Source: Convolutriloba macropyga (lineage: Eukaryota). Taken from it: DNA of 64,000 nt. Below, piece by piece: positions 935 through 49,474 of this stretch. A program made the position numbers and the translations under genes. The stretch spans positions 3,472,001-3,536,000 of the forward strand of contig NC_134470.1 in assembly GCF_964194025.1 (NCBI RefSeq), given 5' to 3'. Below the pieces are notes generated by a model, which did no database searches, was not told the DNA's origin, and was given only the letters and a program-made list of their open reading frames with translations. The first letter of the stretch is position 1. Each line of letters opens with the position of its first letter.

Positions 935-954
935 ATTGCGGCGTGTAAACAATC

Positions 955-8472: not shown

Positions 8473-8918
8473 TGTCGTACACAAACAATATTGTGTACTT
8501 GAACTTGCAGTGCGAATCATAATTAAAATTTATGTTTCGTTTATTCATTGGGCAAGTGCACTTAACGATGTTTTGTAAATGAATTTGCTTAGCGAATCGT
8601 CTGCCTGACACTTGTCTATTTTACTCAGATAGTAAAGTACGGTTGACAAGAAATAAGATAAATTAAGTAACTGTTCTCGAATTGAAAAACTAAGAGAATG
8701 AAAAGTTATAACAGTTAGCAACTCAGAAGTCATAACTAAATGTGAACACATAATTCCCAGAGCGGGAATTTGGGCAACAGACATAATGTGTGAATTAAAA
8801 TTGGTAGACACTGAACTTAAAATGACTTTATGATACGGCCTTCAAGATTAGGTACAGCATTAAATAAGTACATCGTATAATAGTTTTACTGCACCAAACA
8901 AAATGATTATGTACAACA
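8473..8918 (-). repeat. 3' LTR of element C
   Basis: TGTTGTAC...GTACGACA on the minus strand, preceded by PPT AAAATGGAGAAA (8919-8930). Homologous to 15105-15549 with many substitutions. Confidence 0.92.
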
Positions 8919-9074
8919 TTTCTCCATTTTTATTGAAAATTAAAATTGCATAATATGGAATTTAATATGGTAATATGGTATTTAATAATTATTCACCGGT
9001 TTAATAGATATCAACAATATATTTACTGGTTATCACAGCTAGTCAAAAGTAATAAAATATGGAGTTTTAAACAT

Positions 9075-15000: not shown

Positions 15001-15105
15001 CCTGCATCTGCCATATCTCCCACTTCAACGGAGGGTCTGCACTCGGTTTTCCCCAGAAAGGCTCGATGCCGAGTGGGTTCGTTTTTGCTTTGCTGTTTGC
15101 GCCAT
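9075..15105 (-). pseudogene. Fragmented gag-pol of element C
   Basis: Gag (IEPFWGKP, CxxC knuckles), protease LIDSGS (13565-14080), RT 'FLDD' (12586-13065), RNase H 'ELELLGVV/TDHRAL' (12282-12518), integrase HHCC and core (10423-10923). Many stops and frameshifts. Collinear with element A. Confidence 0.93.
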
Positions 15106-15549
15106 GTCGTACACAAACAATATTGTGTACTTGAACTTGCAGTGCCAATCAAAATTAAAATTTATGGTTCGTTTATTTTTGTGGCAAGTGAATTTAACAC
15201 TGTTTTGCAAATGAATTCGCTTAGCGAATCGTCTGCCTGACACTTGTCTATTTTACTCAGATAGTAAAATACGGCTGATAAGGAATAAGATAAATTAGGC
15301 AACTATTCAGAGATGGAAAACAAAGAGAAAGAAAATTTAGAACAGTTAGCAACTGAGAAATCATAACTAAATGTTAACACATAAATCCAAGAGCGGGAAT
15401 TTGGGCAACAGACATAATGTGTGAAATAAAAGTGGTAGACACTGAACTTAAAATGAATTTATGATACTGCCTTCAAGATTAGGTACAACATTAAATAAGT
15501 ACATCGTATAATAATTTTACTGCAACAAATAAAATGATTATGTACAACC
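15105..15549 (-). repeat. 5' LTR of element C
   Basis: Homologous to 8473-8918, first base mutated (GG for TG). Followed by PBS-like TGGCGCAAACAGCA (15104-15091). Confidence 0.92.
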
Positions 15550-26625: not shown

Positions 26626-27120
26626 TGTCATACGGCAATGGATACCCTTCATGTATCCAAATCCGTATTTTAAACTAATTTATTGTTGTATGTTCCTTTT
26701 GAAGGGCGAATGCCATTTTTAGTTCAGTGCTATATACTTCCTCCCATATTTAGCAGTTAAGTCTGTTCATCCCGTCTGTACCGGATATATACTCATTCAC
26801 GTTGTAAACAAATCAAACTTTGCTTCCTTTCTGTATGATTAAAACCTGAACAAACTTTCTTTCATAATCTGTATTATCATTAACTTTCATTCTCCAATTT
26901 GTAGCGCTAACGCTCAGTTCAATTTAATCCTTGCAAAATACCTCTCGTTTTAACTGAGTAGTTCAGTTAGAGTCAATCGCACCGCGATTGCCAAATCTAG
27001 AAAGGCTTTAGTTGAAAGTAACAACTAAATCGTCCATTCGCGACGCAAGTGCCTATCTCAGTACTTACAAAGCCACATTTGCGATTCAATTGACTATACT
27101 CCTTGTGTATGAGTATAACA
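26626..27120 (+). repeat. 5' LTR of element A (495 bp)
   Basis: TG...CA termini; differs from 33130-33622 by about 3 substitutions and a 2-bp indel by eye. Confidence 0.97.
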
Positions 27121-30100
27121 TGGCGCAGTCAGCATCGGACTCAAAGAAAACACCACTCCATATAGAAGCATTCTGGGAGAAACCGACAGCAACACCTTCC
27201 CTGACGTGGATCAAATGGACGCAGCAGTGGAAATTGGCCCTACTTCCTAAGGAAGGGATCCAATTGGATACTCTGTTGAGTGATCCACCAGCAACAGTGA
27301 CATACCCGCCTGAGCCTACCTATGAAGCACCGGTAGAGAATCACACACAGGCAACGGAAAGAGATCGTAAAGTCCGAAACCAACAATTGAAAGTCAATTG
27401 GCAAAATCGTTGTGCAAAGATTGAAGAAATCGGGATCCTCTGTGGTGACAAGCCATGGGGAATTTGTGAACAGAAGACAATATCATTGCTATATCTAAGC
27501 ATTGGCACAGAGGGGCGACGGATCTTCAAGAGCAAGTACCCTCACTTTCAGATCGAAAAACAACCTTTTAAAGATTTGTGGCGAGCAATGGAGGACTCAT
27601 TCACAAAGGTTCGTAATATAACTTACGATCGCTTCGTTTTCTACTCGTGTAAACAACAAAAAAGGAGAATCGGTAGAAAGTTTCTACGGCCGTCTCATAG
27701 AATTGGCGGAAAATTGTAATCTTGGTAGTGAAGAAACTACACTCATTCGTGATGCATTCATATTAAATATGCTTGATCACGAAACTCAGAAAGAGTTGTT
27801 GAAGGAAACAGTAGACCCACCAAAAGCATTGGAAATCGCCATACAAATGGAAATGGGAGCACAGAACCAGCAGAAAATTAACCAAAACTTGATGTCAGGT
27901 AATACTTCAGTGAATTACATCAATAATAACTCAATGAGCAATCGCAACGCGAATGGACCTTCCACAAAGCGAGACTCCACTCGCTACGCATCTATCCCAA
28001 AAAACTACCAATATACGAGTATTTGTATGGATTGTGGTCTTCGCTGGAGCCACAACCATAAGCAGATTTGTCCCGCGAATGGAAAAAAATGCCATAATTG
28101 TGGTTTTATGGGTCATTTCGCTAGAAAATGTCGAAAAACAAAACTGCCACAGCTTCCAATTCCGAAAACTCAAAAATCAAATGTAAACCAAATCGATCAG
28201 ACGCCGGAAAAAAGTGATGATGAAGAATCAGTAAACTATATCACGAGCTATCAACAATTGTACGACCAGGTGTACGATTCAAACTATGATAGCGACTCTG
28301 ACGACTACGTAGCAGCGATTTCTTCGGATTCAGTTCATCAATTAGAACCATTAAACGTGGAAGTGCAAATAGGAGAAATACAAAAATCTGCTATGATTGA
28401 CTCTGGAAGTGCTGTGAGTATCATCACACAAAGTTTAGCAAACAAAGTCCTACGATCTACAAACTCAGCTAAATGGATAAAATCGACGGAAAAAAGGAAT
28501 TTGAAAACTTTTTCCAATGAGCCGATCAAGGTCATCGGACACTTGGAGACCACAGTAGCCTACAATCAATGGCAAGACAAATCAGCAATATTGACTGTGG
28601 TAGATGATGGACACAAAAATATCATTGGACGAGATCTGTTCACTACTTTGGGACTTGCAGTTGTCCAACAACAACCAGAAACTGGTAAATGTGTTTATAA
28701 CATCAATAATCCTACATGTAAAATTAAAGAGTCAATCGCGACGCAATTTCCACATCTAGTATCGAGAATTGGTTTATCTAAAACACATGTAGCAAAGTCA
28801 AAGTTTCATCAAACGTTCACAGCAAAGCATCAAAAAGGTCGACGTGTTCCGATAAATCTTCAACCTAGAGTATCAAGCGAATTAGAAAGACTACAGATTG
28901 AGGGTCATATCGAAAAACTATCTAGTTGCTCTGACGAACACTTCATCTCCCCGATTGTAATTACAGTAAAAAAAGATCAGTCGATAAAACTCGCATTAGA
29001 TTCAAAAGTATTAAATAAAGCAATACATAAAAACAAATACCAAATGCCTAATATTGAAATGTTAATTGACACCATATCACAACATCTCACAGATACACAA
29101 AATGGTCAACAAGCATATTTCACCACATTAGATCTCAAATATGCATACAGTCAATTAAAACTACATCACGATACAGCAAAACACTGTAATTTTAACATCA
29201 TATGTGGAGAATCTACAGGTACATATAGATTCAAAACTGGTTTTTATGGACTTACAGATATGCCGGCAGAGTTTCAAAAAGCCATGGATTATACTCTCAT
29301 TGGTTTACAAAACACATACTGTTTCTTAGACGATATTATAATCGTTAGTACCGGCACTGAAGCAGATCATTTAGCCTACGTCCACAAATGTCTAAAAAAA
29401 TTAGATGACGATAACTTGAGAATTAACCTCCAGAAATGTCATTTCGCTAAATCTGAAATAGAATGGCTCGGTTACAAATTTACACAGACTGGGATATCAC
29501 CTTTAGAAAGCAAAACAGCCGCAATCTTAACAATACCACCACCAACAACATTAAAACGCCTTAGATCATTTCTCGGGTCAGTACATTAAATTGGCAAATT
29601 TATACCTCACTTAGCACAACTATGTCATCCACTTAGACCACTACTGAAGAAATCAGTAAAATTCATATGGACAGACGAACATACTAAACATTTTAATCAG
29701 AATAAAGAAAAAATAGCAAATAGTACAGAAAATAGCCATTACAACCCTAAACTGGATGTTCGTGTAAAATGTGATGCCTCCCGTTCAGGATTGGGGGCAG
29801 CATTGGAACAAAATACACCGGATGGTTGGAAACCAATAGCCTTCGCGTCGCGATTCCTCAATTCAACGGAAGAACGCTACAGCGTCAACGAATTGGAACT
29901 ATTGGGGATAGTTTGGTCAATCGATTATTTTAAATACTACTTATACGGAAAAAACTTTACGGTAGTAACAGACCACAGAGCCCTATTGTCAATACTTAAA
30001 GAACACCGATCAAATAAGTCATACAATAGTCGACTGTCTCGATGGATAGATAGATTGCTACCGTACAATTTCACGATTGAGCATATGCCAGGTGCAAAAA

Positions 30101-32997
30101 TGGGACTCGTTGATTACATTTCTAGAAACCCTTTTGCAAGAGCTAAAAAGATATCTACATACGACGAGCACTTTGTTGTAGCAACAATTTCTAAGATCCG
30201 TGATTCAATGAAACATTTAATTACCAATAGACAAACTACAACTACAAAATTTATAAACATATTAAAGTTGAATTTGCCTTCACCAAAAGTTACACAACCA
30301 TTTGCATCGCGATTAACCATATCAAAAAGCAATAATTCAACTAATTGTGATATAGCATCCGCATCGCAATTAACCAGTTCACCACTGAAACCTCCATTCG
30401 CACCGCAATTAACACATGCTAATTCTAAATTTAATCCGTATTCTGTACATCCATTTGCGCCGCAAATGCCACCTAAATTTACAAAATTACAATTTGTACC
30501 AAATCACTGTAAAGTAAATAATTCACATTCCATTAACAAATTCGCTGCAAAAGAGGTGCAAATTGTAGACAGTAAAGAATGTGAACAATCTGAACAATTA
30601 TCCTTAATACAGCCTATTAATGGTAATAAGTCAAGTAATACACCTAACAACACTAAATTAAGCGCGAAAACACAAATCCACAAATATAAATACCACTCAC
30701 CCAAAAATAACTCGCTTTTTGCCCAAATTCTGCCTAAGAAACACTGCTTTGTGAATAAACTCAATAAACCTTTCATCTCAAATAATTCCATAAATAGTCT
30801 CAGCACGATGTCAAAAGCTAAAGCAACCCGTTCGAAATCGACTCCTACTAAAGCAAGAGTAACGTTCTCCAACACAACACCCTCAACACCCGAATCAAAT
30901 GCAACAACTCATACTGAAACCCCAACTGGTAGTATGATAGACGAAGCTGAGGACATAATGTTCACCGAGACCCTAAACAAGGTGTTCAGTAGGAAATTTC
31001 TAGCAATACTGACTGGAAAAGACGCGATATTGAAAGAAGTAAGGGACTGTGTACTTCGAAATGATGCAGAACGACTACAAGAAATCAGTCCCTACCTCTT
31101 CTCATATTGGAGAGATCTTAGTGTGAAGCACGGGTGTGTCTGTCTAGACGAAAGAATTGCGATCCCAAAGTCCATTAAAGATGCGGTGTTGGAGGACATA
31201 CACTCCACACACCCAGGCAGTTTCGCTATGCTTTCCTTAGCTCAAAATATCTGGTGGCCTTACATCCACAGAGACATTCTGGCAAAGGCCAGTGAGTGCA
31301 AAGCTTGCACAGATATTGGTAAGAATCTAAAATCAGTGATTTCGCACCGCAAATGGACACCTCTACCTAAATGTAGTGAACCAAATGACGAAATACAATT
31401 AGATTTTGGCGGCCCAATTCTAAATGAGAAAGGAATAGAACAATATTTCCTTACTAGTATAGATAGATACTCTAAATATCCTACAGCAGAAATAGTAAAT
31501 AACGCATCAGGTCCAAATGTAATCAAATTCTTAAATAATTATATATATCATCATGGAGTGCCTAGAACTATTAGATTAGACCAAGCTAGATGTTTTACAG
31601 AAGTTTTAAAGAAATCTGAAACATTTTGTACCGAAAACAATATTACACCTATTTATGCACCTGCAAATGACCATAGAGCAATAGGATTAGTAGAACGTAT
31701 CATTCAAACAATTAAACGACAATTAGCTTGCATGAAATCACAGTTAAATAAGAAATTTATTTTAGAAAATTCACTCAAAGCAATAATACAACGACTTCGT
31801 ATATCAAAACAAAAAACAATTACAACCACACCCTTTGAGGCACATTTCGGTAGAAAATGTAACACACCTATATAAAATATTACAACTAAATCTGATAGTA
31901 AAAATCTCAACTATAATGCAATAATAAATTACTATTTAGACGAGGATACAATCCCAGGTCGTTCCTATCTCACAGATGAACAGTGGGCAGATACAGCTCT
32001 TTGTTCCGATACGGAAATTGAGCGAGTCATTTGCGCCGCAAGTACCCGCGCAAGAACGGAACAAGAGAAAAGGAAAGATGGGGAAGAGCGTTTTATAAAG
32101 CCAGATGTCATTCACCGTGCAATTCCCTGCTCTGAAAGAAGCGTACAAGTGAAGTTGGCCCGAAAAATACATGAAAACCAGCGCCAAAAGAAAAACTTGG
32201 ACGGCCTCTACGAAGTATTAGCACCTGGCAGTACAGTGTGCAAAATAAGCCCAACGACGAGCGTCATCAAAGAACCCTCCAAACCTGAAGTACGGGTCAG
32301 AAATTCTGACATCGCCAAATTTGGAACGCGGGCCGAACGGGAAACAACTTTAGCACAGTACATAGACAGACGCCCAAAGAAACTAAACGAAAAAACTCTC
32401 GAACAAAAAATTCAACAGCATAAACGAGATCTTTTTCGAAAAAATACTGGAGAGAAAAAGATAAAGCGAAACAGAAAAAACACAGGCGATGTAAGTGTCA
32501 TTTCGTCGGCACGATCCTGTATATCTACAGCTAGCAATGTCGCAAGATCATTGAAAATGAGAGTACCAAAAAGAAACCCGAAATACGATGAGGCATTCAA
32601 AAATCGACCCGACCTTACACAAATATTAAATTTTAGTCCAATCGCGCCGCAAATGGTATCATCTGATATAGCAGGGCCATCTGGAACGCAAACAACCTCC
32701 TCGACTCAAAAACAACCTACACCCATCTTGAGAAAGACTTCGAAACGCAAAATCACGGTCAGCGATACATCGGATTAGGATACGTCTTCTATTAGAAAAA
32801 GCAAAATGACACTGAAGAAAAAATCCCAAAAATCGCAAACAATTGTCGAAAAAGTTCGTAACACAGAAGGTTACACTGATTACCAAGACACTGGCATTGC
32901 GGGAGGATCAAATCAAGAAGATGAGTACTCGCAAAACCAACCAAGGGAGATGACAGTTCTCCAGGCCGAAAATGCTGAAAATAGCGACAGCGAGTAA
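27120..32997 (+). pseudogene. gag-pol polyprotein of element A (single ORF with 1 frameshift and 3 premature stops)
   Basis: ORFs at 27703, 29791, 32149 and 32806 share one frame. An extra A in the A-run at ~27658-27663 breaks QQKGESVESFYGRL. Two Cys knuckles, protease MIDSGS, RT CFLDD, RNase H CDAS/ELELLG/TDH, integrase HHCC plus D,D,E (QLDF, RLDQ, GLVER). Stops at 29587, 31873 and 32776. Confidence 0.95.
27121..27134 (+). promoter_or_regulatory. Primer-binding site, tRNA-Ser-like
   Basis: TGGCGCAGTCAGCA directly after the LTR, complementary to the 3' end (...UGCUGACUGCGCCA) typical of invertebrate tRNA-Ser. Confidence 0.8.
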
Positions 32998-33129
32998 TCT
33001 TCGATAAAGAAACTTTCATAAACTTCTATTTTATCTATTATTTAATATTTTATTACTTACTAACCGGTGAATATTTATTAGTTTTCTGATTTTAATTTAG
33101 TAAATTAATTTTTCCTCAAGAGGGGGAAA

Positions 33130-33622
33130 TGTCATACGGCAATGGATACCCTTCATGTATCCATATCCGTATTTTAAACTAATTTATTGTTGTATGTTCC
33201 TTTTGAAGGGCGAATGCCATTTTTAGTTCAGTGCTATATACTTCCTCCCATATTTAGCAGTTAAGTCTGTTCATCCCGTCTGTACCGGATATATACTCAT
33301 TCACGTTGTAAACAAATCAAACTTTGCTTCCTTTCTGTATGATTAAAACCTGAACAAACTTTCTTTCATAATCTGTATTATCATTAACTTTCATTCTCCA
33401 ATTTGTAGCGCTAACGCTCAGTTCAATTTAATCCTTGCAAAATACCTCTCGTTTTAACTGAGTAGTTCAGTTAGAGTCAATCACACCGCGATTGCCAAAT
33501 CTAGAAAGGCTTTAGTTGAAAGTAACAACTAAATCGTCCATTCGCGACGCAAGTGCCTATCTCAGTACTCACAAAGCCATTTGCGATTCAATTGACTATA
33601 CTCCTTGTGTATGAGTATAACA
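33130..33622 (+). repeat. 3' LTR of element A, shared with the following partial copy
   Basis: Follows the PPT, matches the 5' LTR, and is immediately followed by PBS and gag again. Confidence 0.97.
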
Positions 33623-34506
33623 TGGCGCAGTCAGCATCGGACTCAAAGAAAACACCACTCCATATAGAAGCATTCTGGGAGAAACCGACAGCAACACCTT
33701 CCCTGACGTGGATCAAATGGACGCAGCAGTGGAAATTGGCCCTACTTCCTAAGGAAGGGATCCAATTGGATACTCTGTTGAGTGATCCACCAGCAACAGT
33801 GACATACCCGCCTGAGCCTACCTATGAAGCACCGGTAGAGAATCACACACAGGCAACGGAAAGAGATCGTAAAGTCCGAAACCAACAATTGAAAGTCAAT
33901 TGGCAAAATCGTTGTGCAAAGATTGAAGAAATCGGGATCCTCTGTGGTGACAAGCCATGGGGAATTTGTGAACAGAAGACAATATCATTGCTATATCTAA
34001 GCATTGGCACAGAGGGGCGACGGATCTTCAAGAGCAAGTACCCTCACTTTCAGATCGAAAAACAACCTTTTAAAGATTTGTGGCGAGCAATGGAGGACTC
34101 ATTCACAAAGGTTCGTAATATAACTTACGATCGCTTCGTTTTCTACTCGTGTAAACAACAAAAAAGGAGAATCGGTAGAAAGTTTCTACGGCCGTCTCAT
34201 AGAATTGGCGGAAAATTGTAATCTTGGTAGTGAAGAAACTACACTCATTCGTGATGCATTCATATTAAATATGCTTGATCACGAAACTCAGAAAGAGTTG
34301 TTGAAGGAAACAGTAGACCCACCAAAAGCATTGGAAATCGCCATACAAATGGAAATGGGAGCACAGAACCAGCAGAAAATTAACCAAAACTTGATGTCAG
34401 GTAATACTTCAGTGAATTACATCAATAATAACTCAATGAGCAATCGCAACGCGAATGGACCTTCCACAAAGCGAGACTCCACTCGCTACGCATCTATCCC
34501 AAAAAA
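33622..34506 (+). pseudogene. Second, truncated PBS-gag copy of element A
   Basis: Apparently identical to 27120-28004 including the same frameshift; breaks at ...ATCTATCCCAAAAAA. Confidence 0.95.
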
Positions 34507-34520
34507 CCGTATGACAAACA

Positions 34521-35077
34521 AGGCACAAGAAAAACGCTCAGAGAGATTTGCTAGTATGAAAAGCAGTGGTTCGTCAAACAAGTTAGTCATAGTTGAGAGA
34601 CGAAGTTGACACGCGAAGAGTGTTTAAAAACGATCAATCAATCTTTCTGATTAGCTTAAATTACCTTGACTTAGTGGAATCGGGATTCTTCCAACTGTTG
34701 AAAGTTGTTTATGATTCTTAATTTTGAATAACAGGAGAAAATTTTACTGTGTTCATTAATTCTCTACTTCGTAATTACTTATTCTGGGGATAACCCTTAG
34801 CTTCAATTCATCGGTGGAAAGAACCGATATTTACTTGGTTGTTTTAATAACTACAACTCAAAGAATTATTATTTCCATTACTTGGAAAAGAAATTAAATA
34901 TTGCGTGCAATAAATATCTTAAATACAGCTTTGAGCGAGCACAGGGGACAATAGTCTATACTAAATTGTCAGATGGACTCACTTTTCTCTGAAGAACCTT
35001 TCAAACTTGATAGAGTTTTGGGCGCCAGCCAGTCCCCAGCTAGAAGCCTTCTAACGATAAAAGTACAAAATTCTACA
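34521..35077 (+). repeat. 5' LTR remnant (3' portion) of element B
   Basis: Homologous to 48711-49294 (aggcacaagaaaaacgct...aaaattctaca) with scattered substitutions and a ~21-bp indel. Confidence 0.93.
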
Positions 35078-35078: not shown

Positions 35079-35097
35079 TGGCGCTCCTGGGTGGGCT
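35079..35097 (+). promoter_or_regulatory. Primer-binding site, tRNA-Asn-like
   Basis: TGGCGCTCCTGGGTGGGCT 1 nt after the LTR, resembling the complement of the eukaryotic tRNA-Asn 3' end (...AGCCCACCCAGG..GCCA). Confidence 0.7.
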
Positions 35098-35376: not shown

Positions 35377-36528
35377 ATGGCGTTGCAAACGGAAGATATA
35401 CAACGATTTGCCCATTCAGCCATTCAAGCTGCGGACGCACTGAATAGTCAAGGACTGCAAGGGCCAGGTGCACACCAACCTGACTGTTTTCCTAATCCGA
35501 TATACAAAATTTGGGTGGATTGGAAAAAACATTTTGTATGCATTGCGGAGTCGACTCGTTGGGATGAAGAACAAGCAATGGCTTGTGTCCCAACCTGCCT
35601 CACAGGCTGGGCCCTTGACGAATGCACTGCAATGCCCAACCACTTTCGAGAACAGGAATATGGGCATCCGGCACCTACTCTGGAGCGATTGTTTGAATAC
35701 TTAGACCCTCGAATGATGCGATTTCGAAACCAACGAACTGCTCGAGCCGAGTTCAAAAACTTTATTCAAGGTGAAAAGGAACGAAATCAGGATTTTTCAA
35801 GGAGAATACGGTCCATCGGGGAGGTAGCAAACCATAACATGAATGCTGCAACCCGTGGCGATATGAACCGTGAACAGTTTATCGATGGACTCTATGACGC
35901 TGAAATCTAAGAATTTCTACTTAGAGAAGATCCCCAAAACTTCTCGGCTGCTATAAATAGGGCACTGAGCCTTGATAGTGTAGCACGTAATTCTTGTATG
36001 CAACAGCGACGAAGGTTAGCGTCATTGTGATCAGTTGTTGAAGACCCCGTTGAGACTCAGAGATATACTCAGAGTAATGAGATGATGCAGAGAGGCAAGG
36101 CATCAAGAGTGTTCGCAACTGCGGAGAATTCTACGGATCTTTCGGGGTCTGTCAATGCTAAGATTGATCAACTAGTAAACAGTTAGGCCGAGTTTATGAA
36201 GAATATGTCAAATATGATGAGCAAATTCGTGACTTCAGTAATTCCGAAGCAATATGAAGTCTCACATAGTGAAAATAAACCAAAACAGGAAAGCGACGAG
36301 AAACGTCTGTACAATCCTTATCCGCCTGGTAGCCGTTACGGTCAACAATTCATCAGTTCCAAACCAAACAATGCCCAGTACAGTGGTGGACCAGCTCAAA
36401 AAAACAGCCTCGGCAGACGATTAGGAGCTGCGGGAAGGCAGTGTTTCCAATGTGGCCAGGAAGGTTATTTTGTTAAGGATTGCCCTGAGCGCCAAAACCA
36501 ACAACAGACCGGTCCTTTTAACTACTAG
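35377..36528 (+). pseudogene. gag of element B
   Basis: Capsid-like W..W..HF..IA...W and QGEKE MHR-like segment, degenerate knuckle CFQCGQEGYFVKDC, in-frame stops, TAG at 36526. Confidence 0.85.
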
Positions 36529-36689: not shown

Positions 36690-39600
36690 AGATGATGAGA
36701 AAAAGTTTGATTCGTCGGATTTTGATGAAGGTTCTGAAGCAGCCGTGGTTGATGGCATAGTGAATGACTCGATAATTTTGGATGACTCGACACGGAAATG
36801 ACTCGACACGGAAAAATTGATTGGTACGGGGGCATCAACAAATATAATGCAAGCAGAAAAACTCTTCAGCTCTGATCGTTTTGCGAGAAATATCCCATAT
36901 AAAGGCCGCTTAGAGTCAGCCGATGGAAAGACCATAAATGTTCTTGGTCGCGCAATATTGGAGTTAAAGCTGGGTTCTATATGCGTGGAAATACACCTTC
37001 TAGTGTTGCAGAACTTGAAGCCTCAGATGATACTTGGCCTCAAGGAAATGAAACGCCATGGTTGTACAATTGACTTTAGATCAAACGAAATGTGGACAGG
37101 CAGCAAAGAAAGTTAGGCGGTGGTAATGCGCATGGTTTCTCTGACCTCAGTTGGCAGCTACCGTTAGTGTCGCGAAACTGAAATTGACCTGTCAATGCAA
37201 GATACAAAGCTTGTCAACGATCATCAGCTGAAGGCAGTCACTGGCGCTAGTCCCAAAGAAAACGACCATCTGATGGCAGCGCAACACTTTAGAAAAACAC
37301 AGGTCAAAGATTCAGAAAGCAATTCTCTAAGTGAAACCGAAGATGAGGAATGGACAGACACTGATAATGAGGTTGGGAACTGGGTTACTTACACAGTCTA
37401 TAAAGCCCAAGATCATCCCACTCTAGACCAGGAAGTTGATCAAATTTTGAAATTATCTGCACCGGGCGTTTCTGGTGTTGCTCTCGATCGGCTGAGAACA
37501 CTAGTGCGAGAATATCGGTATGTATTTGCGTTGAAAAGCAATGAACTTGGATGCACCGACATTGTTCTGCATCAAATTAAAACAGGTGATACCCCACCCA
37601 TCAAAAAACATCCACACCGTATTTCGCCGGCCAAGATACCTATTATCCAAGAAGAACTCAAGAGCATGCTGGAGAAGGGAGTCATTCAGTCTTCATAGAG
37701 CCCCTACAGCGCTCCTATTGTGCTTCAGAAGAAAAAATATGATAGCTGGAGATTCTGCGTAGACTACCGCAACCTTAACGATGTTACGGTGAAAGACGCC
37801 TTTCCTATACCAAAAATAGATCTGAGTTTCGATGCTTTGAGGGGAGCGAAATTTTGTTCTCTCGAATTAGCAAGTGGCTACTGGCAGGTACCGGTTGTAC
37901 CAGAGGATAGACAGAAAACAGTTTTCGTCAAACCTGATGCTGGGCTGTATGAATACATTAAAATGCCTTTTCTATCTAATGCCCCCGGATCCTTTCAAAG
38001 GCTTATGAACAATCTTTTCAAAGATCACCTCTGGAAGTGGGTTCTAATTTTTCTTGATGATGTTTTGGCGTACGATTGGACTGAGGAAGAACACTTCAAA
38101 CACATTGAAGTTATATTCAATCTGTTGCGAGCAGCAAGTTTGAAACTGAAGCCTAGGAAATGCAGACTTCTTCAGCAGCAAGTTGTATACCTCAGTCATG
38201 TTATCGATAAAGATGGAGCTCGACCAGACCCTTAAAATGTTGCTGTTGTCAGAGAATGGCCAGAACCAAAAACCGTTAAACAAGTACGGTCATTCGTTGG
38301 ATTTTGCAATTACTATCGGCGCTTTGTGAAAGACTTTGCACAAATTGCTCGTCCTTTACATGCATTAACAAATAAAAAAGCTCGATTTGAGTGAACTAAC
38401 AAATAAAAATGCTCGATTTTGCAATCACTATCGGCGCTTTGTGAAAGACTTTGCACAAATTGCTCGTCCCTTACATGAATTAACAAATAAAAATGCTCGA
38501 TTTGACTCCCTGTTGTCAAATGGCATTCGATCGACTGCGTCTCGAACTAGCTACAGCATATGTCCTACAGTTCCCTCGGTATGACTGCCCCTTTATCATT
38601 GACACAGATGCAAGCAACGTATAAGCAACGTCAGTCTGGGTTCAGTACTTTCAAATTTCATTGATGGCGTGGAACATCCTATAGTATTTGCAAGTAGGAG
38701 CCTGAGTAAGACCGAAACTATGTACTCTACAACGAAGCGGGAATCCCTGGTGGTAGTTCAGGCTTTGAAATGGTTCAAACATTATATATGGGGACTCAGC
38801 TTTGTCATACGTACAGATCATGCCAGCTTAAAATGGTTATTCAGGCAAAATGCAGACGGCATGACGTTCAGAATGCTCCAACATTTGCAAGAGTTCAATT
38901 ACAAAATTGTTCATCGCGCGGGCAACAAACATGCCAATGCGAATGGGTTCTCTCGGATGACGGAAGAAGAGCCTGAATGAGAGCCGGGCGAAAAAGAACA
39001 AGTAACGGTGCAGTGTCCTGAACCTCAAGAAATCAAAGAAGCCCTAAAAAGAGTTCGTGAACGTTGTGCTATGGTTGACGCTATCACAGAAACCATAGAT
39101 GACGAAAATGAAGAGGGGGTCGCTATAACATGGACTCGCAAGACTCAGATATAGAACGGTTGCAGCAGGAAGACGAGGCAATCAGCCGTATTTTGTACTG
39201 GGCACCAACAGGATCAGAAAGTAGCTGCTCGCCTCTGGGCCCTAACTTAATTTCAAAAGAACAGGCAGTTCACCATGGACCTGAAGTAGTAGCCTACTGG
39301 TCACGGTGGTCAGAGCTTGTTCTTAAGAATCAAGTTTTGTACAGGAAGTCGTATCAACCAGAGAAGAACGAACCGCATTTGCAGCTGATTGTACCTGTTT
39401 CTTGCAGAAAAAAAATTTTAGATCAACTTCACACTTCCCCAGTGAGTGGAGGTCATTTCAAAATAGAAAGAACACTATTGCGAATAAGGCAGAGATTCTG
39501 GTGGCCCTTCATGAGGCGTGACATTGAGAAAAAAACTTCTTGGTGTCTTCCATGTGCAGCTCGGACCACGGCAGGCAGGCAACGTACCGCATAATTAAGT

Positions 39601-40900
39601 CCCTTCGAAGTTGGTATTCGCTTTCACACGGTTGCTGCTGATATACTATGACCAGTTACACTAGCCGCACGGTCAAGAGCGAAGTAAATTCTTGTTATGA
39701 AGGATTTGTTCACAAAACATGCAATCAGTGTTCCACTTGTTGTAACCTAAGCAAAAGATGTGGCGAAAGAAATTGTAGAATGCTGGGTCCTTAATTTTGT
39801 CGTGCCCGATGTACTTCACACAGACCAACGAAAAAACTTTGGGATTGACTTGATTAAAGAAATCTGTAAATTGCTTAAAATGGACGAAGCAAGAACTTCT
39901 CCGTATTACTCTCAGGGAAATGTTCAAGTGGAACAACTTATCCGTGTAATTGCCGATGTTCTCTCAAAATATTGCGCCAAAAACCATCGAGATTGGGACA
40001 CAATGCTGCCTTATGTCAATTTTGTCTATAATACGACTATTCATAGGACGACAGGAGCCACTCCGTTTAGTCTCGTCTATGGACAGGAGTGCCAATATCC
40101 TATTGATCTGTTCTACCCGAAGCCTCACCATCAAGAAAAGACCCAGAACGAGTTTGTTGACTGGCTCGATAGGCAATTTAGGGAGGCCCATTCTCATGCA
40201 CGGGAGTTTTTGGGAGTAAATCAAAACCGACAAAAAAATCACTTTCATAAGGAAGTTTCTGGAAAACCATACGAAGTCGATGACGAAGTGTGGGTTTTCT
40301 CAAAACATAAAGCTAAATCAAAAAAATTCTTTCTTCCGTGGGAGGGACTTTACATTGTCCTTGAGAGAACTTCGAAAGTTAACAACAAAGTTAGTAAACC
40401 CCAAAAGCGTGATAAATGGCTTATCCTCCACTACAAACTCCTCAAACCATTCGTGGAAGGGGAACCGAAAACGAGCGAGCGTAGAGCCACACCGTTTTGT
40501 TCCACGAATTTTTATGAGGAACCACTAAAAATTGACGAGTGGGAGCAATTGGATCCGGACCCAATTCCCCGGCCGCCAATATTGGTGGCAAGAAATCGGA
40601 TACAAGTCCCGCAGCCAGCCGTGCAACAGGAAAATGAACTAATCAACAGTCCTATAGTCGAACAGCCAGCTGATCAATTGGGCGATCAGGTCGCCCCGGA
40701 TACAAATAGCCGTGAAAATGATCCGGAATACCAAGGACATTTGGTTCAAAGGCAGTTGGAGTCTCCCAGCGTCGGGTACAGCAGATCTCCAGACGCAGAG
40801 GTTGAACAAACAACACGACCGATTAACCAGAATTAAGTGGAAGAACCCGTTGCGCTACGCCGATCGACAACGATCCGAGCACCGGTCATACGACTGGGAA
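36690..40900 (+). pseudogene. pol of element B (PR-RT-RH-IN), fragmented
   Basis: Protease LIGTGAS (DTG mutated), RT WRFCVDYRNLN / FLDD, RNase H RTDHASLKW, integrase LH..GGH..C..C, HTDQ, YNTTIHRTTGATPF, and GPY/F-like WEGLY. Confidence 0.93.
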
Positions 40901-41000
40901 TCGATGAATAAACACTTTTTCCTCGTTTACTTAAATTCGTTACCCGGATCCCTCTTCCTTGCTTTTTATGAATCGCAAGGCTTTGGTCGGATTTGAATGA

Positions 41001-41026: not shown

Positions 41027-43402
41027 GTTAACGCGGTCACGACAGGAAAAACGGACAGATTTCTGACTCTGAGGCTACTCTTCCTATTTCCCATGCTGAG
41101 ATGTGCTATCTGTTTAACTACTAACCATACAGCTGGCGCAGTCTTCACAACGGAAAACCCTGTCATCATTGCGAGTGCGCTGGAATCAACCTGGGTATTG
41201 GTGCCACTACCAGTCCTACCTGCCCTCAACTTAACATCTCTGGACATTGCTTTCCAGGAATTCCAATACGAATTTGCAATGCGATGGAAGAAGCATCATG
41301 GACGGTTTTGCAAAAACTTTTTTACCACTAAAGTTTTGATGAATACGACATATCTTGCACTGAAGGGATTGGAATAGGAAATGCTAGAAATTGATATTGT
41401 TTGTACTGAAATGTGGGAAAGGGCTGCAACATAATTAAATGGAACAGAATCAGTCTTGTCGAGGTCAAAGCGATTCGTCAAACCGCTGCTAGGTGGGATA
41501 GCTGCTGCTATTGCCCTTGCGCCAGTCCGAAAAGCTTGTTTTTGTCAGTACTTCTCTTTCTTCGGATTGTGTTGCGGTGCAGACTTGGATAGACTTGGTA
41601 AAGAGACAGCATTTCTGGACGGAGCGGTACCAACACTCGCTCCTGAATCAGGGGAACGAGTCCACCTGCTGGGCCACTCATTAATCAAAACTCAAGGGCA
41701 ATTGAAGATGATCATTCATAATTCTAATGACAACTTCCATAAGATCAGGAATGTTTTGGGAGAGCTTATCAATAACACCAACATTGGAGTAACACATTGG
41801 GGGGCCTGCTACAACAACAGACAGAAATCAGCAGTGGTCGCTGCTCAGTTTAATATGGGAATGACAAACTTCACCCAAACTATGCTTGCTTTGAGAGCAG
41901 AATGGGTGGCATTCAAAGTCGGACTTCACAATTTTGGCTACATCCTAGATGACGCATTGAGTAGTTTAGCTCGGGGCTATATTCCAGCAACACTCGTACC
42001 TTCAAAAGTTTTGCGACAAGTTCTTAACGGGCTCAAAGTTGACAGGATGCAGGAAGCTATACCCCGTTCTGATTTAATGACCTATTACGGCTTTGAACTA
42101 GTAGAGTCAACAGTATTTACAGAAACAGCCGTAAATGTCCTGATAAACGTGCCTGTACACCACACTAACGGATTTCATAAAGTTTATCGCGCAGTTCCAG
42201 TACCTCAACCAATTGAAGACGGTTCGACAGCGACACGATACAGTTTCTCGCGAAGTTACTTATTGATATCGGAAAGAAAAGATAAATTTGCCGAAGTTAT
42301 GGAGGAGAAACTCATTTCACATTGTAGCGGCAGTAATCGTCTTAAACTGTGTCTAAAACTTTTTTCAATGTCACGAAGTGGAGAATCTACGTGCCTTTCT
42401 AGTCTGTTTTTCGACTTGCAAACATCAGTTCTAAAATTTTGTGCACAGCAGGGTGTAGCCCTACCGGAAGAACCTTACGCGGAGTACTTGGACGACTCAA
42501 CCCACTTGGTTTACTCGCGATCCAGCGACTACAGACTACTCAACTACAGCTCACAAGCCTTCGATACTGGAGAGTGGATCTGCGGCTGCAAAAGTTGCCT
42601 AATTCGATCACCTTGCAAAGGACGTATAGAGGACCCCAGTGGTAGTTTGGTATTGTATCCGGACCCAAGAATTTGCCAGTACGAGACCGGACTTGTTGTA
42701 AGGATTCAACAACACCCCTTACTGCGGACTTTGTTCGGTGAATTGCACGAAATGGAGGCACAACTAGCTGGAATGAAAATCCCAGATGTGTTTCGCGAGG
42801 AAGCTCCCAGTCAAATGCTGGAGACTTTACGTTTGAACTTGGTTGATCTACCCAAAGGAATTGTAGATGAAGAAGCTATGAAAACCATCGCGAAACCTTT
42901 TGCACAAGGAAATATCAATCAGCATGCACCATTCCACTGGCGGGCTTACCACAGTGGACCTGTCAGCTGGTTTGTATGGTTTGTATTAGCTGCAATCTTA
43001 GTAGTTGCACTCTGGATGATGTACACAGGACTCTGCCGAGTTATAGTGAACAAAGCGTGTATCGAAGGGAATACGGCTGGTACTCAGACGAGTCCGAGAG
43101 CCAGAAGGAGTAGATACAATTGTTGGGAGCGCCTACTAAGAGGAGATGCGGGTTTGAGTGGACAAGGGCCGATGAATTTCAGAATGATTGATCGCATTCG
43201 AGTGCAACCTTACTCTGAACGCGACGGGATGGAATCAACTCAATTGGAAGACGACCTTGATGACTCTTTCATTTCGACACCTCATCACCCCCGGATCCAG
43301 TGGCAAAACGCAGAGGAGCAGGGACTACCGAGAGAAGTTGGCGTGCGTCAAGATTTTATAAACTGTAGAAGGGAAGGGAAGAGTGAGCCGATGACAGCGT
43401 AA
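41027..43402 (+). pseudogene. env: Envelope (class I fusion, baculovirus F / errantivirus env-like) glycoprotein with two in-frame stops
   Basis: ORFs 41093-41377 and 41456-43402 are in one frame. Signal-like FLTLRLLFLFPMLRCAIC, furin site RSKR then fusion peptide FVKPLLGGIAAAIALA, heptad region, 'LARGYIPATLVP', 'LINVP', 'YRAVPVP', Cys-rich ectodomain, TM WFVWFVLAAILVVALWMMY, long cytoplasmic tail. Confidence 0.88.
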
Positions 43403-43789: not shown

Positions 43790-44344
43790 ATGAGTGGCAC
43801 ACACTTCGAGTGGCACTGCTTCACTCTTGGCCGTCTTTTTAAACTTAGAGATGTCAAAGATACATGGAGCGGTCATTTGGTGGATCTCATAGATGGGAAC
43901 GTAGTTTTTTTGGAAGTTGGGGAACCAGAGTTCTACTCCTTTCTTTCGATTCCCTGGTCAACAGCACCACGACTACTTATCGAGGCGGGGACTAACGATT
44001 AAGTGGAGGATAGAAAACCGGAGGATAATTCAGATACCCCCGACCAAGACTACTCAGTAGAAGAAAACTCATTCCAAGTAAAACACTCCCTCCATCGCCC
44101 TCTAGCTCCAAATGAATTAATAGAAATCATTATTCGACCGGTAGAACGCGAAGAAGCGGATACGTCGGTGGAAATAAACAGGGTTCTCTCTGACTCCACG
44201 GCAGCGGAGCCAGATTCTGAACAAGATATTAGCGACGAAGGTGGACCTGAGATGCCTCCTTTCTACGCACGACGGGACAATCGAGAAGGTGAAATTGAAT
44301 GGGAAGATGTTAGCAGCGACGAATTAACCGACAATTATATTTAA
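43790..44344 (+). pseudogene. Accessory ORF of element B, ~184 aa with acidic C-terminal half, one internal stop
   Basis: ORFs 43790-44002 and 44003-44344 are contiguous in one frame separated by a single TAA. Protein-like composition; function unknown. Confidence 0.6.
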
Positions 44345-44975
44345 CCGATCGTTCCAACTTAAGCGGGCAAAACGTGTCTCTATTTGAATTTGTTATCTAG
44401 GAAGTAATTAGTACATTTAGCCACAAAACCAGAGATCAAAATCAGCGCCTATCAAAGCTATAACCCCGAAAGAACAACATTTCCATCATGGTTCTTATAT
44501 TTTGGGAGTTCAAAGTTCTAGATTGGGTTGTCGTCTTCCAGCGGGTACAATTTTGCGAGGATAGTTTTGTTATTTTACAACTGGAAGACGAAAACGAATT
44601 TTTGCTTTTACTGGATAGTGCGGCGGGCAAATAAGTTAAGTCGGCTACGTTATCTAACTGGGTCAAGCCTTTGACGAATGAACCGTTACCAGCATTCCAA
44701 TCAATACTATATTCTCCTTGTTTGAAGGATGTGTCCACGCAAACGGAAAAGAAGAATATCACTTGGACGCCAGCGATGTGGGAAAAACAAATAAATAAAG
44801 TAGTATATGGACTTCGTGCTAACAGGGTTGAACTCTGCCGTTTCCTGATAACTTTTATACAAAGCTTACTATAGTTATAATTATACACTCAGTTTGTAGA
44901 GTATTAATTAAAGTAGCAACAGCATAGAAAAAAAGGGGGTTTGAGGATAGAATTACAAGTTTAAATAACTCAAAC

Positions 44976-45896: not shown

Positions 45897-45908
45897 AGAA
45901 GGGAAGGG
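45897..45908 (+). promoter_or_regulatory. Polypurine tract of element B
   Basis: AGAAGGGAAGGG directly abutting TGTAGAATTT. Confidence 0.7.
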
Positions 45909-46400
45909 TGTAGAATTTAGTTCCTGCGTAGTTTATTGACACCTTTGTTAGTCGCAACTTTAACTTTCACAATCAGAACTTTTGCGGGTAAAATAAAGAG
46001 GTCCGAATTTTGACAAGTCTCAAATACAAATATGCGTCTTTACATTAGGACTAATGAAACACACACTTCGGACTCAAATAACTTGTTCTAACAAAGATAA
46101 GACCAAATTAGCACACGAATGACCAACAATACCAAAAGTGGAGTTTTGCACGGCAAATAACACCTGATAAGAGGCACACAAAATTGTGGCGCGATTTGGG
46201 CCAAGGCAAATAAGAGTTGGAAAATCTCGAGGTCATTCACATTAAAACTTAGCCCGTGGAAACTACAAACAAAGGAAATCAATTTATTGTCCTTATTTTT
46301 TCATTAAAAACTGAACTTAGCTAACTGCTATTATTGGCCTTGCTCCATATTGGCCTTGCTCCATACCCTTATTCGTCAGGCTTTAATATCTTGTAGCACT

Positions 46401-46816
46401 ATGGACAACAAAATCCTAAAGGCACGATATGGAAAGGCCCCAATAAAACTACCTCCAGTGGCTGGCAAAACGCCCTGGGCAGAGCACATTCGAAACTTCA
46501 AGACGAAGGCAAAGAGGCGAACAAAAAACGGCAAGTCTAACAAGGGAAAAAAGACCCTCGCAGCGAAACAAAACCGGCAGCCACAGCAATAAAGCGAGCA
46601 ACAACAGCCACCAAACGATCAACAACAGCAGCAATGCGAACAACAACAGCAACGCGAACAACAGCATCAACCAGCTTGTGATAGCGACTTGTCCAAAGAC
46701 GAAAGAGCCGAGCAACAAGCGCTATTGGAAATAAAGAAGAGAGTGCAAATCGAGCGTCCATATGCAGTGTAAAAGCAAACTTTAATTTAATTAGATATCT
46801 GTCATGTGTGTGCTAG
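46401..46816 (+). pseudogene. Small basic (K/R-rich) plus Gln-rich ORF with one internal TAA, within the inferred LTR
   Basis: ATG at 46401 MDNKILKARYGK...KTKAKRRTKNGK. TAA at 46590 lies amid CAA/CAG codons and the frame continues SEQQQPPNDQQQQQ... to TAG at 46814. AATAAA at ~46826. Confidence 0.55.
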
Positions 46817-46860
46817 TCCGGTTTAATAAATGATGTCGTCGAAATTGAACAATTTACCCC

Positions 46861-47754
46861 TCATTTTTTTGGCTTAACACGAGTAACAATAAAACAATGC
46901 ATTGTTCCACCGCTCAGGCCGGCCTTTAAGTAAATTCCTCCTCTATTTGGGCCCACTTTGTTTCCAGTGTAACAATCCCAGTGGGCTTGCTCGATTTCAT
47001 CGGTCTCATAAAACATATAAATATTAGTTCTAAAGGTTCGGGCTAGCATTCTCAAATCTGTTGTTGTAACGAAATTAAGATCATCTGGGCCATTAATAAG
47101 AGGGGCAGCGCCCATCAGTTTTAATAAGTGGCGGTCCGGGCCTTCTTTTTGTAAAGAACGAATTATCTCTTCATTTTTTCCGCCTTGATTACGGTTTCCG
47201 GTCAGAATTGTGCTAAGTGCAGCGCACACGCAATTGTAATCGGGATCAATAGTGTCCACAGTTTTAGGGATAAAAGAAATAGGATCTAACGAAGGGGCGT
47301 TCTTGAAGCAATTGTTTTCCAGTAACGGCCTTTTGTTAATAACTAGGCCTAATTCATAACAAATTCTATCCAGTGTAAGGCGAGAAGCATGAACTAAGGG
47401 ACCGGTAAAACGGCGATGAGTAAATTTTTCATTGCAATAATCGCAGTTACGTACTATTTCTCGAACGATAGGCTGGGCTCCCTGGACATCGTAAGATTGT
47501 TTAACAAGCCGTTCGAGCTTAACTGCTTTAATATGCTCGTGGTCTCGATGTAACTTTTGTATGATAATTTTTGCATTCCTGGAATGCAACACTTTAAATC
47601 CAGTCTTTTTATTAATAAAAATTAGTTTTGGTTTGCAAAGCCGACTGCATAATTGTTTAAAATTGTGCCTTTTCAGTTGATTAAAACTGACATCTAGTGG
47701 AAATGATCCACGGCGATGAAATTTGAGAATAGACTGATATAATTGGAAATCCAT
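46861..47754 (-). CDS. Integrase-type H2C2 zinc finger fused to an OTU-like cysteine protease (297 aa), antisense within element B
   Basis: Uninterrupted ATG-TGA ORF. N-terminal LYQSILKFHRRGSFP, then LHRDHEH...VREIVRNCDYC. C-terminal IDPDYNCVCAALS (cf. DGNCLFRALS), TTTDLRMLARTFRTNIYMF, and IYLKAGLSGGTMHCFIV (His loop). Confidence 0.75.
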   Translation of the reverse strand: MDFQLYQSILKFHRRGSFPLDVSFNQLKRHNFKQLCSRLCKPKLIFINKKTGFKVLHSRNAKIIIQKLHRDHEHIKAVKLERLVKQSYDVQGAQPIVREIVRNCDYCNEKFTHRRFTGPLVHASRLTLDRICYELGLVINKRPLLENNCFKNAPSLDPISFIPKTVDTIDPDYNCVCAALSTILTGNRNQGGKNEEIIRSLQKEGPDRHLLKLMGAAPLINGPDDLNFVTTTDLRMLARTFRTNIYMFYETDEIEQAHWDCYTGNKVGPNRGGIYLKAGLSGGTMHCFIVTRVKPKK

Positions 47755-49474
47755 TGGCGCTCTAAGTTAGTAGGTAAATAAAAGCTAGTAGGAATTAAGG
47801 TTTAATGAATTTGGTAGTTTGTGATTTGCTAGTTTTCTGGTATTTGCGTAAGTTCATTGAGCAAACAAGAAATGGTGTGCATACTATTTCCTTTACTGAG
47901 TTATCAGAGCATGATATATCGATCTGCTACTCTCTGGTACGGCTTCAGGGTTCCCAATTGCTTCAAACTAAGCGTCTAGAATTTCACCACCCCCCGCAAG
48001 TCTTGAAAACCCTACTTCCTCAAGTCCGATAACCATGAAATTTTAACTGATCACTCTTAGGACAATTCCTTACACATTGAAGAAAACAACGGGCTTTTTC
48101 CGGTACCCAAAACCGTTCTTTTGGCCTTTGAAGTAAAACAAAAAAAATAGATGAAAGGCGAATTTCTTATACTCATTTGAAAGAAACGACACTTTTTCTA
48201 GAGTCAAAACATTTTACCAAGGCGTCGTTCAGAGTGGAAAGTTGAGATAAATTACCTGTCAATTCCAAAGTATTAGCACTGAGACTGTTCTACAAGGGAG
48301 TAAGGGACAGAAAGAGCTAAGGTTTCTTTTTCCTTTTTTTGATGACTCTAAGGAAATGGTTAAAATTTTGTTTAAAACGGAACACTTCTCCAGCCTAAAT
48401 GGGAAACAAAGGTATCATAGTTTAAATTGGATGCGTATCCGTTACTTAGGGAGGAAAAAAAAGCAAGCGCGCGAAAATTTGCACACATATTGCTCAGCAT
48501 GAAACATGGATTGTGCCATATTCTGAAATTATCAAACCGAGTTAAACAAGCAACTCCGGTCATCTCGAACAAACATTCACATAAGAAAGGTGGCATCTTG
48601 TGATTGACCTTCCACGCCCACTATAACACTTAGACGTTAGGTCAGAATGTTCTAAAAGGAACGACACGTTACTTTTTGCTGATAAAAAACTGATCAGGTT
48701 GAGTACCCTTAGGCACAAGAAAAACGCTGAGAGAGAGATTTGCTAATCTGAAAAGCAGTGGTTCGTCAAACAAGTTAGTCATTGTTGAGAGACGAAGTTG
48801 ACACGCGAGTTCAACTTTCTTAGGTAAAAAAGAGTGTTTAAAAACGATTAATCGATCTTTCTGATTAGCTTAAATTACCTTGACTTAGTGGAATCGGGAT
48901 TCTTCCAACTGTTGTAAGTTGTTTATGATTCTTAATTTTGAATAACAGGAGAAAATTTTATTGTGTTCATTAATTCTCTACTTCGTAATTACTTATTCTG
49001 GGGATAACCCTAAGCTTCAATTCATCGGTGCAAAGAATCGATATATACTTGGTTGTTTTAATAACTACATTTCAAAGAATTATTATTTCCATTATTTGGA
49101 AAAGAAATTAATTATTGCGCGCATCAAATTTCTTTTATATACAGCTTTGAGAGAGCACAGTGGACAATAGTCTATACTTAATTGTCAGACGGACTCACTT
49201 TTCTTCGAATAACCTTTAAAACTTGATAGAGTTTTGGGCGCTAGCCGGTCCCCAGCTAGAAGCCTTCTGACGATAAAAAATACAAAATTCTACAATATAT
49301 ATATATGTATATATATAACCGAGGGTTAGGTACGAGTTTACAATAACGCTTTTTTATCCCTTGAGAAGGGTCAATAACCCAAAAAAGATCAGGTTTTTAT
49401 TGGGGCGAGGTTCCAATTTTGAATCGGGTCCTAGTTGCTTTTGGAGAGCTAATAAGCAGTAATCAACACCCCAC

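Follow-up and report, generated by a model that had tools for sequence, protein, structure and literature searches.

An antisense gene for a predicted OTU-fold cysteine protease inside the long terminal repeats of env-bearing Ty3/Gypsy retrotransposons of Convolutriloba macropyga

The window analysed here, a stretch of 64,000 nucleotides of the Convolutriloba macropyga genome (assembly GCF_964194025.1, contig NC_134470.1, positions 3,472,001 to 3,536,000 of the forward strand), contains a copy of a retrotransposon that, by its gene content, belongs to the env-bearing Ty3/Gypsy elements. The 3' long terminal repeat (LTR) of this element, 3386 bp with 10-bp inverted termini (45909-49294, plus strand), encompasses two convergent open reading frames (ORFs). 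ORF-A (46401-46772, plus strand) has a basic N-terminal half, a Gln-rich middle and an acidic end, whereas ORF-B (46861-47754, minus strand), which is open and 297 amino acids (aa) long, encodes an H2C2-type zinc finger followed by a domain with a predicted OTU fold.

The purely purine polypurine tract (PPT) AGAAGGGAAGGG (45897-45908, plus strand) lies directly 5' of TGTAGAATTT (45909-45918), which is the exact reverse complement of AAATTCTACA (49285-49294), as described in an earlier note on this DNA that had proposed a 3386-bp 3' LTR. Of the two, TGTAGAATTT is found once on the plus strand of the window and AAATTCTACA four times in the window, one occurrence closing a remnant of the 5' LTR (35068-35077) just before the primer-binding site (PBS). 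By itself, a 10-bp inverted repeat is weak evidence, and it is the genomic copies that settle the extent of the LTR. The LTR was searched against the genome of the same animal (1.18 Gb), with the best 40 of 857 candidates scored, yielding at least 42 matches, and 36 of the matches listed, the window's own copy included, cover query positions 1-3386 entirely. The pattern of PPT plus LTR start was found at 16 genomic sites, and at 0 for the control. We fetched 30 LTR loci for analysis of termini, flanks and ORF status. Both 10-bp termini are exact in 26 of these, and the flanks identify ten 3' LTRs (PPT upstream), eight 5' LTRs (PBS downstream), nine solo LTRs and three shared LTRs with both PPT and PBS flanks, all three from a tandem array on C2 with a period of ~11.9 kb. 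This array (G000:C2:17258283-17309231; L025, L027 and L030) consists of five LTRs and four internal regions, the latter internally deleted (~8.5 kb in the array unit vs ~10.5 kb in full copies).

The paired LTRs are 3.35-3.39 kb long, lie ~14 kb apart and carry a perfect 5-bp target-site duplication (TSD) common to both ends in all six 5'/3' pairs of which both LTRs were fetched; among the solo LTRs (3.1-3.4 kb), the TSD is perfect in four of nine, with one mismatch in three and two mismatches in two. Both kinds of copies anticipated by the earlier note are therefore present, and the 3386-bp LTR that it proposed stands. In five pairs, 0-7 of ~3360 sites differ between the LTRs, compared with 133 in the sixth; the window's family, denoted W, was therefore active very recently. 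With direct repeats at the ends, TG...CA, inverted termini, TSDs, PBS and PPT all found, positions 45909-49294 are the 3' LTR, and the LTR size of the family is 3.3-3.4 kb.

The long LTR is not directly visible in the window because only positions 34521-35077 (plus strand), the last ~560 bp of the 5' LTR, repeat its end (self-BLAST match to 48711-49294); beyond this remnant, self-BLAST of the window detected no second match to 45909-48700. Most of the 5' LTR is lost, which is why this copy looks odd and why its TSD cannot be read, and the remnant adjoins a truncated unit (33130-34507) of an unrelated element. The two LTRs of the window copy show 33 differences in 557 aligned columns. That just ~580 bp are repeated within the window would suit an LTR of ~700 bp, starting at 48599, with the OTU gene single and internal, the outcome that the earlier note had named as its refutation. 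However, the full-length pairs and the solo LTRs with TSDs already refute such an arrangement, the short match being that of a truncated 5' LTR, and no ~700-bp LTR was found among the 30 best matches or among 19 sampled sites with the LTR end followed by the PBS, so that we attach next to no probability to a short LTR.

On the minus strand, the zinc finger of ORF-B maps to ~47416-47559 and the OTU-fold domain to ~46864-47307, with the codons of the putative catalytic residues Cys175 and His286 at 47230-47232 and 46897-46899, respectively; the two domains are joined by ~40 residues, and no match to rve (DDE) was detected in ORF-B. A first structural model, built from 12 near-identical copies, was unusable (predicted local distance difference test, pLDDT, of 35), and a model of the C-terminal domain from 33 aligned sequences reached a pLDDT of 85.6. 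Comparison of structures points to the OTU fold: in Foldseek, the best match is OTUD3 (E 1e-4) and all six matches at E<=0.001 are OTUs, and in VIA-align (48,161 chains), OTUs account for all 16 matches with Z>=8 (best Z 12.3, root-mean-square deviation 3.4, 125 aligned). ORF-B is 12-18% identical to the best structural matches. The OTU assignment also has support that does not depend on the model: the ORF-B family profile matches seven Pfam-positive OTU domains of this genome (P 93.5%, E 2.3e-7, 160 columns); in this match, Cys175 and His286 fall on the OTU Cys and His, and the helix preceding the domain is also shared. As in OTUs, the Cys opens the first helix and the His the last strand; in the 33-row alignment, 21 of the 23 rows that cover the Cys position retain it, as do 24 of the 28 for the His. 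A search of 1.84 billion representatives produced 67 ORF-B matches, and the distant ones keep Asn-Cys near position 175 and His near 286; this genome does not encode one distant homolog, P0025, the best match being 39%. Sequence-profile searches of PDB with ORF-B returned just a weak match to an L-protein fragment (E 0.24 and 0.73). Atlas look-alikes, taken as leads only, include OTU in 19% of the rank-3 cluster and H2C2 clusters for the N-terminal domain, and a model of ORF-B in complex with host ubiquitin, in which the alignment was not used, scored 0.02 and carries no weight either way.

Protein searches identified relatives of ORF-B elsewhere in the genome (25-41% identity), and both LTRs contain ORF-B in each of four distant families: W, S, T and the gag-only F37. 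Family S consists of three subfamilies with LTRs of 3.75-3.83 kb (pairs 98.4-99.8% identical), and family T has 3.09-kb LTRs (pair 99.5% identical); both are gag-pol-env elements with the same PBS and with ORF-B in antisense orientation. F37 (LTRs of 3.4-4.0 kb) is non-autonomous, with just a gag-like ORF inside. A young F37 copy has a TSD, LTRs that are 99.87% identical and an open 300-aa ORF-B with the Cys and His in both of them; ORF-B is damaged in two older F37 copies. The families F26 (2.6-kb LTRs) and F10 (1.0-1.5 kb) likewise contain a gag-like ORF and no pol match and have the same LTR end and PBS, and no ORF-B was seen in either. Non-autonomous families with gag-like ORFs thus number at least three; F26, F37 and F10 (L107-L125, L127-L140 and L168-L170) have in common the last ~80 bp of the LTR and a tRNA-Asn PBS, and the pattern combining LTR end and PBS has 93 exact genomic matches, compared with 16 for the PPT plus LTR start of family W. 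The earlier note had surmised that each insertion carries two copies of the gene and that solo LTRs spread it further; ORF-B is indeed found in both LTRs and in solo LTRs, the enzymatic activity being a prediction.

ORF-B is under purifying selection. It is open in 22 of the 30 fetched copies, and between two young subfamilies, the ratio of nonsynonymous to synonymous substitution rates (dN/dS) is 0.19-0.20 (p<1e-9), with 0.20-0.28 for pol; across comparisons, ORF-B dN/dS is 0.07-0.25 where measurable. For two old copies of one subfamily, the ratio is 1.06, in line with decay after insertion. A DNA-transposon protein with an architecture of the Ginger1 or Helitron type is the likely source of the cassette: the domain content of ORF-B resembles a Ginger1 transposase minus the DDE core, and its OTU domain with the preceding helix matches Helitron-borne OTUs of this genome. 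The same resemblances could be taken to mean that ORF-B is a passive DNA-transposon relic hitch-hiking in an ancestral LTR. However, the low dN/dS, the open frames, the retention of the intron and the catalytic pair across families, and an OTU exon that remains 65-71% identical between S subfamilies while their synonymous sites are near saturation refute this possibility as far as function is concerned; its part on origin may still hold, but as a whole we consider it highly improbable.

In families S and T, ORF-B is split by a phase-2 GT-AG intron at the same codon, which is lacking in W and F37. In S, the intron is 60-75 nt long; among 30 S-subfamily loci picked by DNA similarity, 28 of them scorable, 62 nt is the commonest length (21 of 28), so that the ORF-B exons are in frame only after splicing. 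Stop-codon read-through of the split S ORF-B was rejected on these lengths, and the multiples of three obtained otherwise (15 of 15) are a bias of protein searches. In the window, a branch-point and 3' splice-site-like sequence (47762-47778, minus strand) located 7 nt before the ORF-B ATG suggests an intron in the 5' untranslated region; an identical 24-nt stretch is present at the ORF-B start in 20 of the 29 copies with a locatable start, and an acceptor-like AG precedes the ORF-B ATG also in S and T. Because ORF-B is antisense, splicing of the genomic RNA leaves its intron in place, which accounts for the survival of the intron, and this intron, deduced from the DNA, is the best indication that ORF-B is a separately transcribed gene. 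Four sequencing runs aligned to a young copy cover all 30 bins, and no joint listed for them reads as a splice junction, which tells nothing about expression either way.

The genes carried in the LTR have diverged far more than the backbone. In family W, the synonymous divergence (dS) of ORF-B is 0.22 where that of pol is 0.024-0.027, and in family S, dS of the cargo exceeds 1.4 or is saturated, compared with 0.10-0.13 for env and the end of the integrase; the first ~300 bp and the last ~1900 bp of the S LTR are ~90% identical, and the middle 65-70%. This excess over gag, pol and env suggests, as the simplest reading, exchange of the cassette by recombination, possibly with selection for diversity. 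Two non-coding blocks that W has in common with F26 (~47955-48140 and ~48525-48740, plus strand; 93% and 78% identity; coordinates carried over approximately from copy L017) are candidates for a core promoter or enhancer. All W/F26 common blocks are confined to the last 1.33 kb of the LTR, with the cargo 5' of them, as would be expected if the core promoter lay 3' of the cargo and the cassette therefore in U3 (the unique 3' region), a placement that we regard as quite probable. The genes might instead be real but lie in R and U5 (the repeat and unique 5' regions), with transcription starting in the first 300-500 bp, ORF-A in R, polyadenylation just after ORF-A, and ORF-B in a very long U5. An AATAAA at LTR position ~905-985, just after ORF-A, in all three W copies, CCAAT-like and TATA-like motifs shortly before the ORF-A ATG in two of the three S subfamilies, and a sense strand free of AATAAA and ATTAAA over the last 1.5 kb of the W LTR would agree with such an arrangement, but hexamers of this kind are frequent in AT-rich DNA, strong-stop DNA of ~3 kb and read-through of the polyadenylation site in the 5' LTR would presumably be required, and the position of the blocks in common with the cargo-free F26 speaks against it. 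The R/U5 placement appears unlikely.

Of the two convergent LTR genes proposed in the earlier note, ORF-B is intact in the window, whereas ORF-A is broken by an in-frame stop (46590-46592); an acceptor-like AG lies just upstream of it (46395-46396). ORF-A is open in 20 of the 30 fetched copies and measures 117 aa in young W copies, where its dN/dS of ~0.3 comes from few sites (p 0.025 and 0.21). In S and T, it is 108-134 and 82 aa long, respectively, in all cases with a basic front and an acidic end; homology between the W and S proteins was not detected, 141-644 of 1000 shuffles reaching the score. Among the three S alleles, identity is 40-48% and synonymous sites approach saturation, yet the proteins match host histone H3 at seven, six and six of the first seven residues; in local alignments of the first 45 residues to H3, in which the N-terminal position is ignored, 22, 175 and 540 of 5000 shuffles reach the score. 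The ORF-A of family S is a candidate histone-tail decoy, a likeness specific to this family, the H3-like start being absent in T. In the S LTRs L039/L040, L033/L034 and L036 (e.g. L040:8208-8534, minus strand), the H3-like ORF also contains a Thr-Gly-Gly motif further on.

Between the LTRs, young copies encode gag, pol, env and two further ORFs, denoted orf4 and orf5. The window copy is an older, decayed member of the family, with broken internal ORFs and a 5' LTR of ~560 bp. Its PBS (35079-35096, plus strand) is complementary to the 3' end of the host tRNA-Asn(GTT); the tRNA-end pattern has 16 genomic matches, and all four loci fetched are tRNA-Asn(GTT) according to ARAGORN. All internal genes are on the plus strand. 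The broken gag (35377-36525; tblastn, 88% to gag of a young copy) corresponds to a young-copy protein with zf-CCHC and a weak Retrotrans_gag match in Pfam. The broken pol (37027-40908; Pfam and tblastn), which in the window copy contains a 91-bp tandem duplication (38300-38505), has the order protease, reverse transcriptase (RT), RNase H and integrase. Its closest solved relative is Ty3 (E 1.5e-113 vs 5.6e-42 for the best retrovirus), and this domain order together with the Ty3-type RT places the element in Ty3/Gypsy (Metaviridae). Named RT relatives are only ~45-54% identical, and the RT tree, with 6 rows, gives no lineage assignment. The env-like gene (41042-43358; tblastn), broken as well, encodes a basic cleavage-type motif followed by a hydrophobic stretch; Baculo_F matches, which would point to the errantiviruses, the env-bearing Gypsy elements of insects, remain below the cut-off (E 0.03 and 0.0056; 15.8 bits vs a cut-off of 24.1), no solved relative was found, and dN/dS in young copies is 0.26-0.29. 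By these assignments, the carrier is an env-bearing Ty3/Gypsy retrotransposon.

Comparison with young copies locates the remains of both accessory ORFs in the window. The acidic, 185-aa orf4 after env (43790-44335), with no Pfam match, is under stronger purifying selection than pol (dN/dS 0.09-0.10, p ~1e-7), and the ~100-aa orf5 before the PPT (44488-44787), with dN/dS of 0.20-0.27 (p 0.04-0.12), resembles an ORF that precedes the PPT of family T. An unrelated Gypsy element at 26626-34507 has the short inverted LTR termini next to its PPT that the earlier note had reported for the other elements of the window and that were checked for this one: its LTR begins with TGTCATA after a purine run and ends with TATAACA, a match at six of seven positions. 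The LTR-plus-gag start of this element (1380 bp) is present a second time at 99.6%, ending 13 bp short of the remaining 5' LTR of the studied element, where either the assembly was joined or a deletion took place. On the minus strand (8471-15548), another LTR element, the third in the window and degraded, has ~447-bp LTRs that are 90.6% identical. Outside the window, a small element (L037:9186 to L038; G000:C15:5531186-5533700) with ~750-bp LTRs, a PBS-like site and a 189-aa gag-like ORF has an LTR that opens with the first ten bases of the studied LTR and otherwise lacks DNA similarity to the large LTRs.

We consider it probable that the LTR of this env-bearing Ty3/Gypsy element carries a conserved antisense gene whose product, an OTU-fold cysteine protease, strips off ubiquitin or a ubiquitin-like tag and thereby protects the element from the host. 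From an antisense promoter in the LTR, Pol II would transcribe ORF-B into an mRNA of its own that is then spliced, the backward orientation of the gene allowing its introns to outlast reverse transcription of the genomic RNA. The integrase-type zinc finger, without a DDE core, might steer the protein to the integration complex or the DNA of the element, where the protease could reverse ubiquitin marks that serve silencing or degradation. ORF-B would act in trans, so that some non-autonomous relatives can do without it, and ORF-A is likely a second small chromatin-directed factor.

Several observations weigh against this reading. PF02338, the Pfam model for OTU, misses ORF-B in all 33 family members, so that the H2C2-OTU assignment of the earlier note holds by comparison of folds and profiles rather than by Pfam, and the Integrase_H2C2 match of residues 66-113 (E 2.9e-4) is below the cut-off. 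The usual third residue of the OTU triad is Asp, Asn or Glu two positions after the His; such an acidic residue is present in host OTUs, whereas Asp, Asn or Glu occupies this position in 0 of 29 rows of the ORF-B alignment. With this residue missing, we classify ORF-B as an OTU-fold dyad protease and not as a canonical OTU. An Asp three positions before the Cys is present in just six of 23 rows, and the Trp-Gly-Gly loop conserved in host OTUs is replaced. A longer, DDE-containing parent of the OTU domain was not found among 8000 scored candidates, which is weak evidence; two related non-autonomous families were recently copied without ORF-B; and H3 mimicry found no support for the ORF-A of family W (one of seven residues; local score reached by 295 of 5000 shuffles).

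Given the absent third residue and the variable upstream Asp, ORF-B could be a functional accessory protein that is no deubiquitinase, with its OTU fold acting in binding or in the cleavage of other substrates and its zinc finger marking an integrase cofactor or regulator. A role of transposon OTUs in post-integration repair, suggested in the accessible part of PMC2836005, points the same way, as does the weak alignment of the H2C2 ligands with the integrase that the element itself encodes (P 0.8%, E 0.07), which does not support a derivation of the zinc finger from that integrase. Nevertheless, no residues are better conserved than the Cys and His among relatives with ~25-45% identity, and the fold matches include the OTU-like viral protease PRO of turnip yellow mosaic virus, which works with a dyad. 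We regard a non-deubiquitinase role as the less likely candidate, and, judging from the modelled fold, a deubiquitinase as the likely identity of ORF-B. More tentatively, and with greater odds against than for it, the whole LTR might be a swappable counter-defence cassette that combines an active deubiquitinase acting on the element's own chromatin or integration complex with, in one family, an H3-tail decoy; such a cassette would be expressed from full elements and solo LTRs and borrowed by non-autonomous parasites, and an arms race with host silencing would have maintained its ancient divergent alleles on backbones that are nearly identical.

LTRs are usually taken to be regulatory DNA, and solo LTRs to be scars that encode nothing. 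With a selected, intron-bearing gene for a predicted enzyme in the LTR, there may be dozens of additional gene copies in the form of solo LTRs. Because the fold of ORF-B has a standard assay, the possible existence of counter-silencing enzymes in animal LTR retrotransposons becomes directly testable. An LTR of this kind would escape both Pfam scans and LTR finders that set short length limits.

Accessory genes in or overlapping the retroviral U3 comprise nef of human and simian immunodeficiency viruses, sag of mouse mammary tumour virus and bel2/bet of foamy viruses. Like ORF-B, these lie inside the LTR and are doubled at each integration, but they are sense-strand genes of Retroviridae, whereas ORF-B is antisense, lies wholly within the LTR of a Ty3/Gypsy carrier, encodes a predicted enzyme and has an intron in sister families. 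According to the available text of PMC7264820 and PMC11963269, the plant elements Retand, Grande and RIRE2 contain antisense additional ORFs between pol and the 3' LTR, and the same papers cite HBZ of human T-cell leukaemia virus type 1 as an antisense accessory gene. The plant ORFs are likewise conserved in most copies, with a promoter of their own in Grande; they occur once per element and, as far as described there, encode TRP28, Smc and similar proteins, unlike ORF-B with its protease fold and its presence in both LTRs. Their origin is given as unknown in the accessible part of PMC7264820, according to which most antisense accessory ORFs known from retrotransposons are without assignable function. 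The size of the LTR has a precedent in plant LTRs of up to ~5 kb (PMC6317226); in the available portion of that paper, size is put down to large LTRs and non-coding expansion, with no LTR-encoded genes mentioned. VANC21 and VANC6 (PMC6719617, as far as accessible) offer a possible analogy, that of an element-encoded accessory protein that may counter silencing in trans; they are unrelated proteins of plant DNA transposons, and an anti-silencing role of ORF-B would be by analogy only.

In the literature searched, mostly outside subscription journals, Repbase Reports and supplements, we found neither an OTU gene nor an H3-tail mimic inside an LTR. OTU domains themselves are widespread in other mobile elements. 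Three of the Pfam-positive OTU loci of this genome that were checked lie in or beside Helitron Rep/helicase ORFs. Helitron-type ORFs of ~2500 aa with an N-terminal Pfam-positive OTU are present at L085-L091, L097 and L141, one with Helitron_like_N and PIF1 confirmed. PolB of Polintons and adintoviruses carries OTU domains as well (PMC8502044, accessible part). The OTUs of Helitrons and Polintons, the nairovirus vOTU and human OTUD1 and OTUD3 have the fold and the Cys-His register in common with ORF-B, but these are domains of replication proteins or host enzymes, whereas ORF-B is a stand-alone LTR gene without the acidic third residue. The closest architecture is that of the Ginger1 transposases, which, in the accessible part of PMC2836005, combine a YPYY motif, H2C2, DDE and OTU and contain introns: ORF-B resembles them in its N-terminus with a YPYY-like motif and H2C2, its C-terminal OTU and its introns, and differs in its length (297 aa vs 500-800 aa), in lacking the DDE core and the GPY/F motif, and in riding in an LTR; no unit bounded by terminal inverted repeats was seen, nor was one looked for. 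Thus, OTUs in Ginger1, Helitrons and Polintons, antisense accessory ORFs and large LTRs are each known separately, and what is new here is a gene with a predicted OTU fold inside an LTR.

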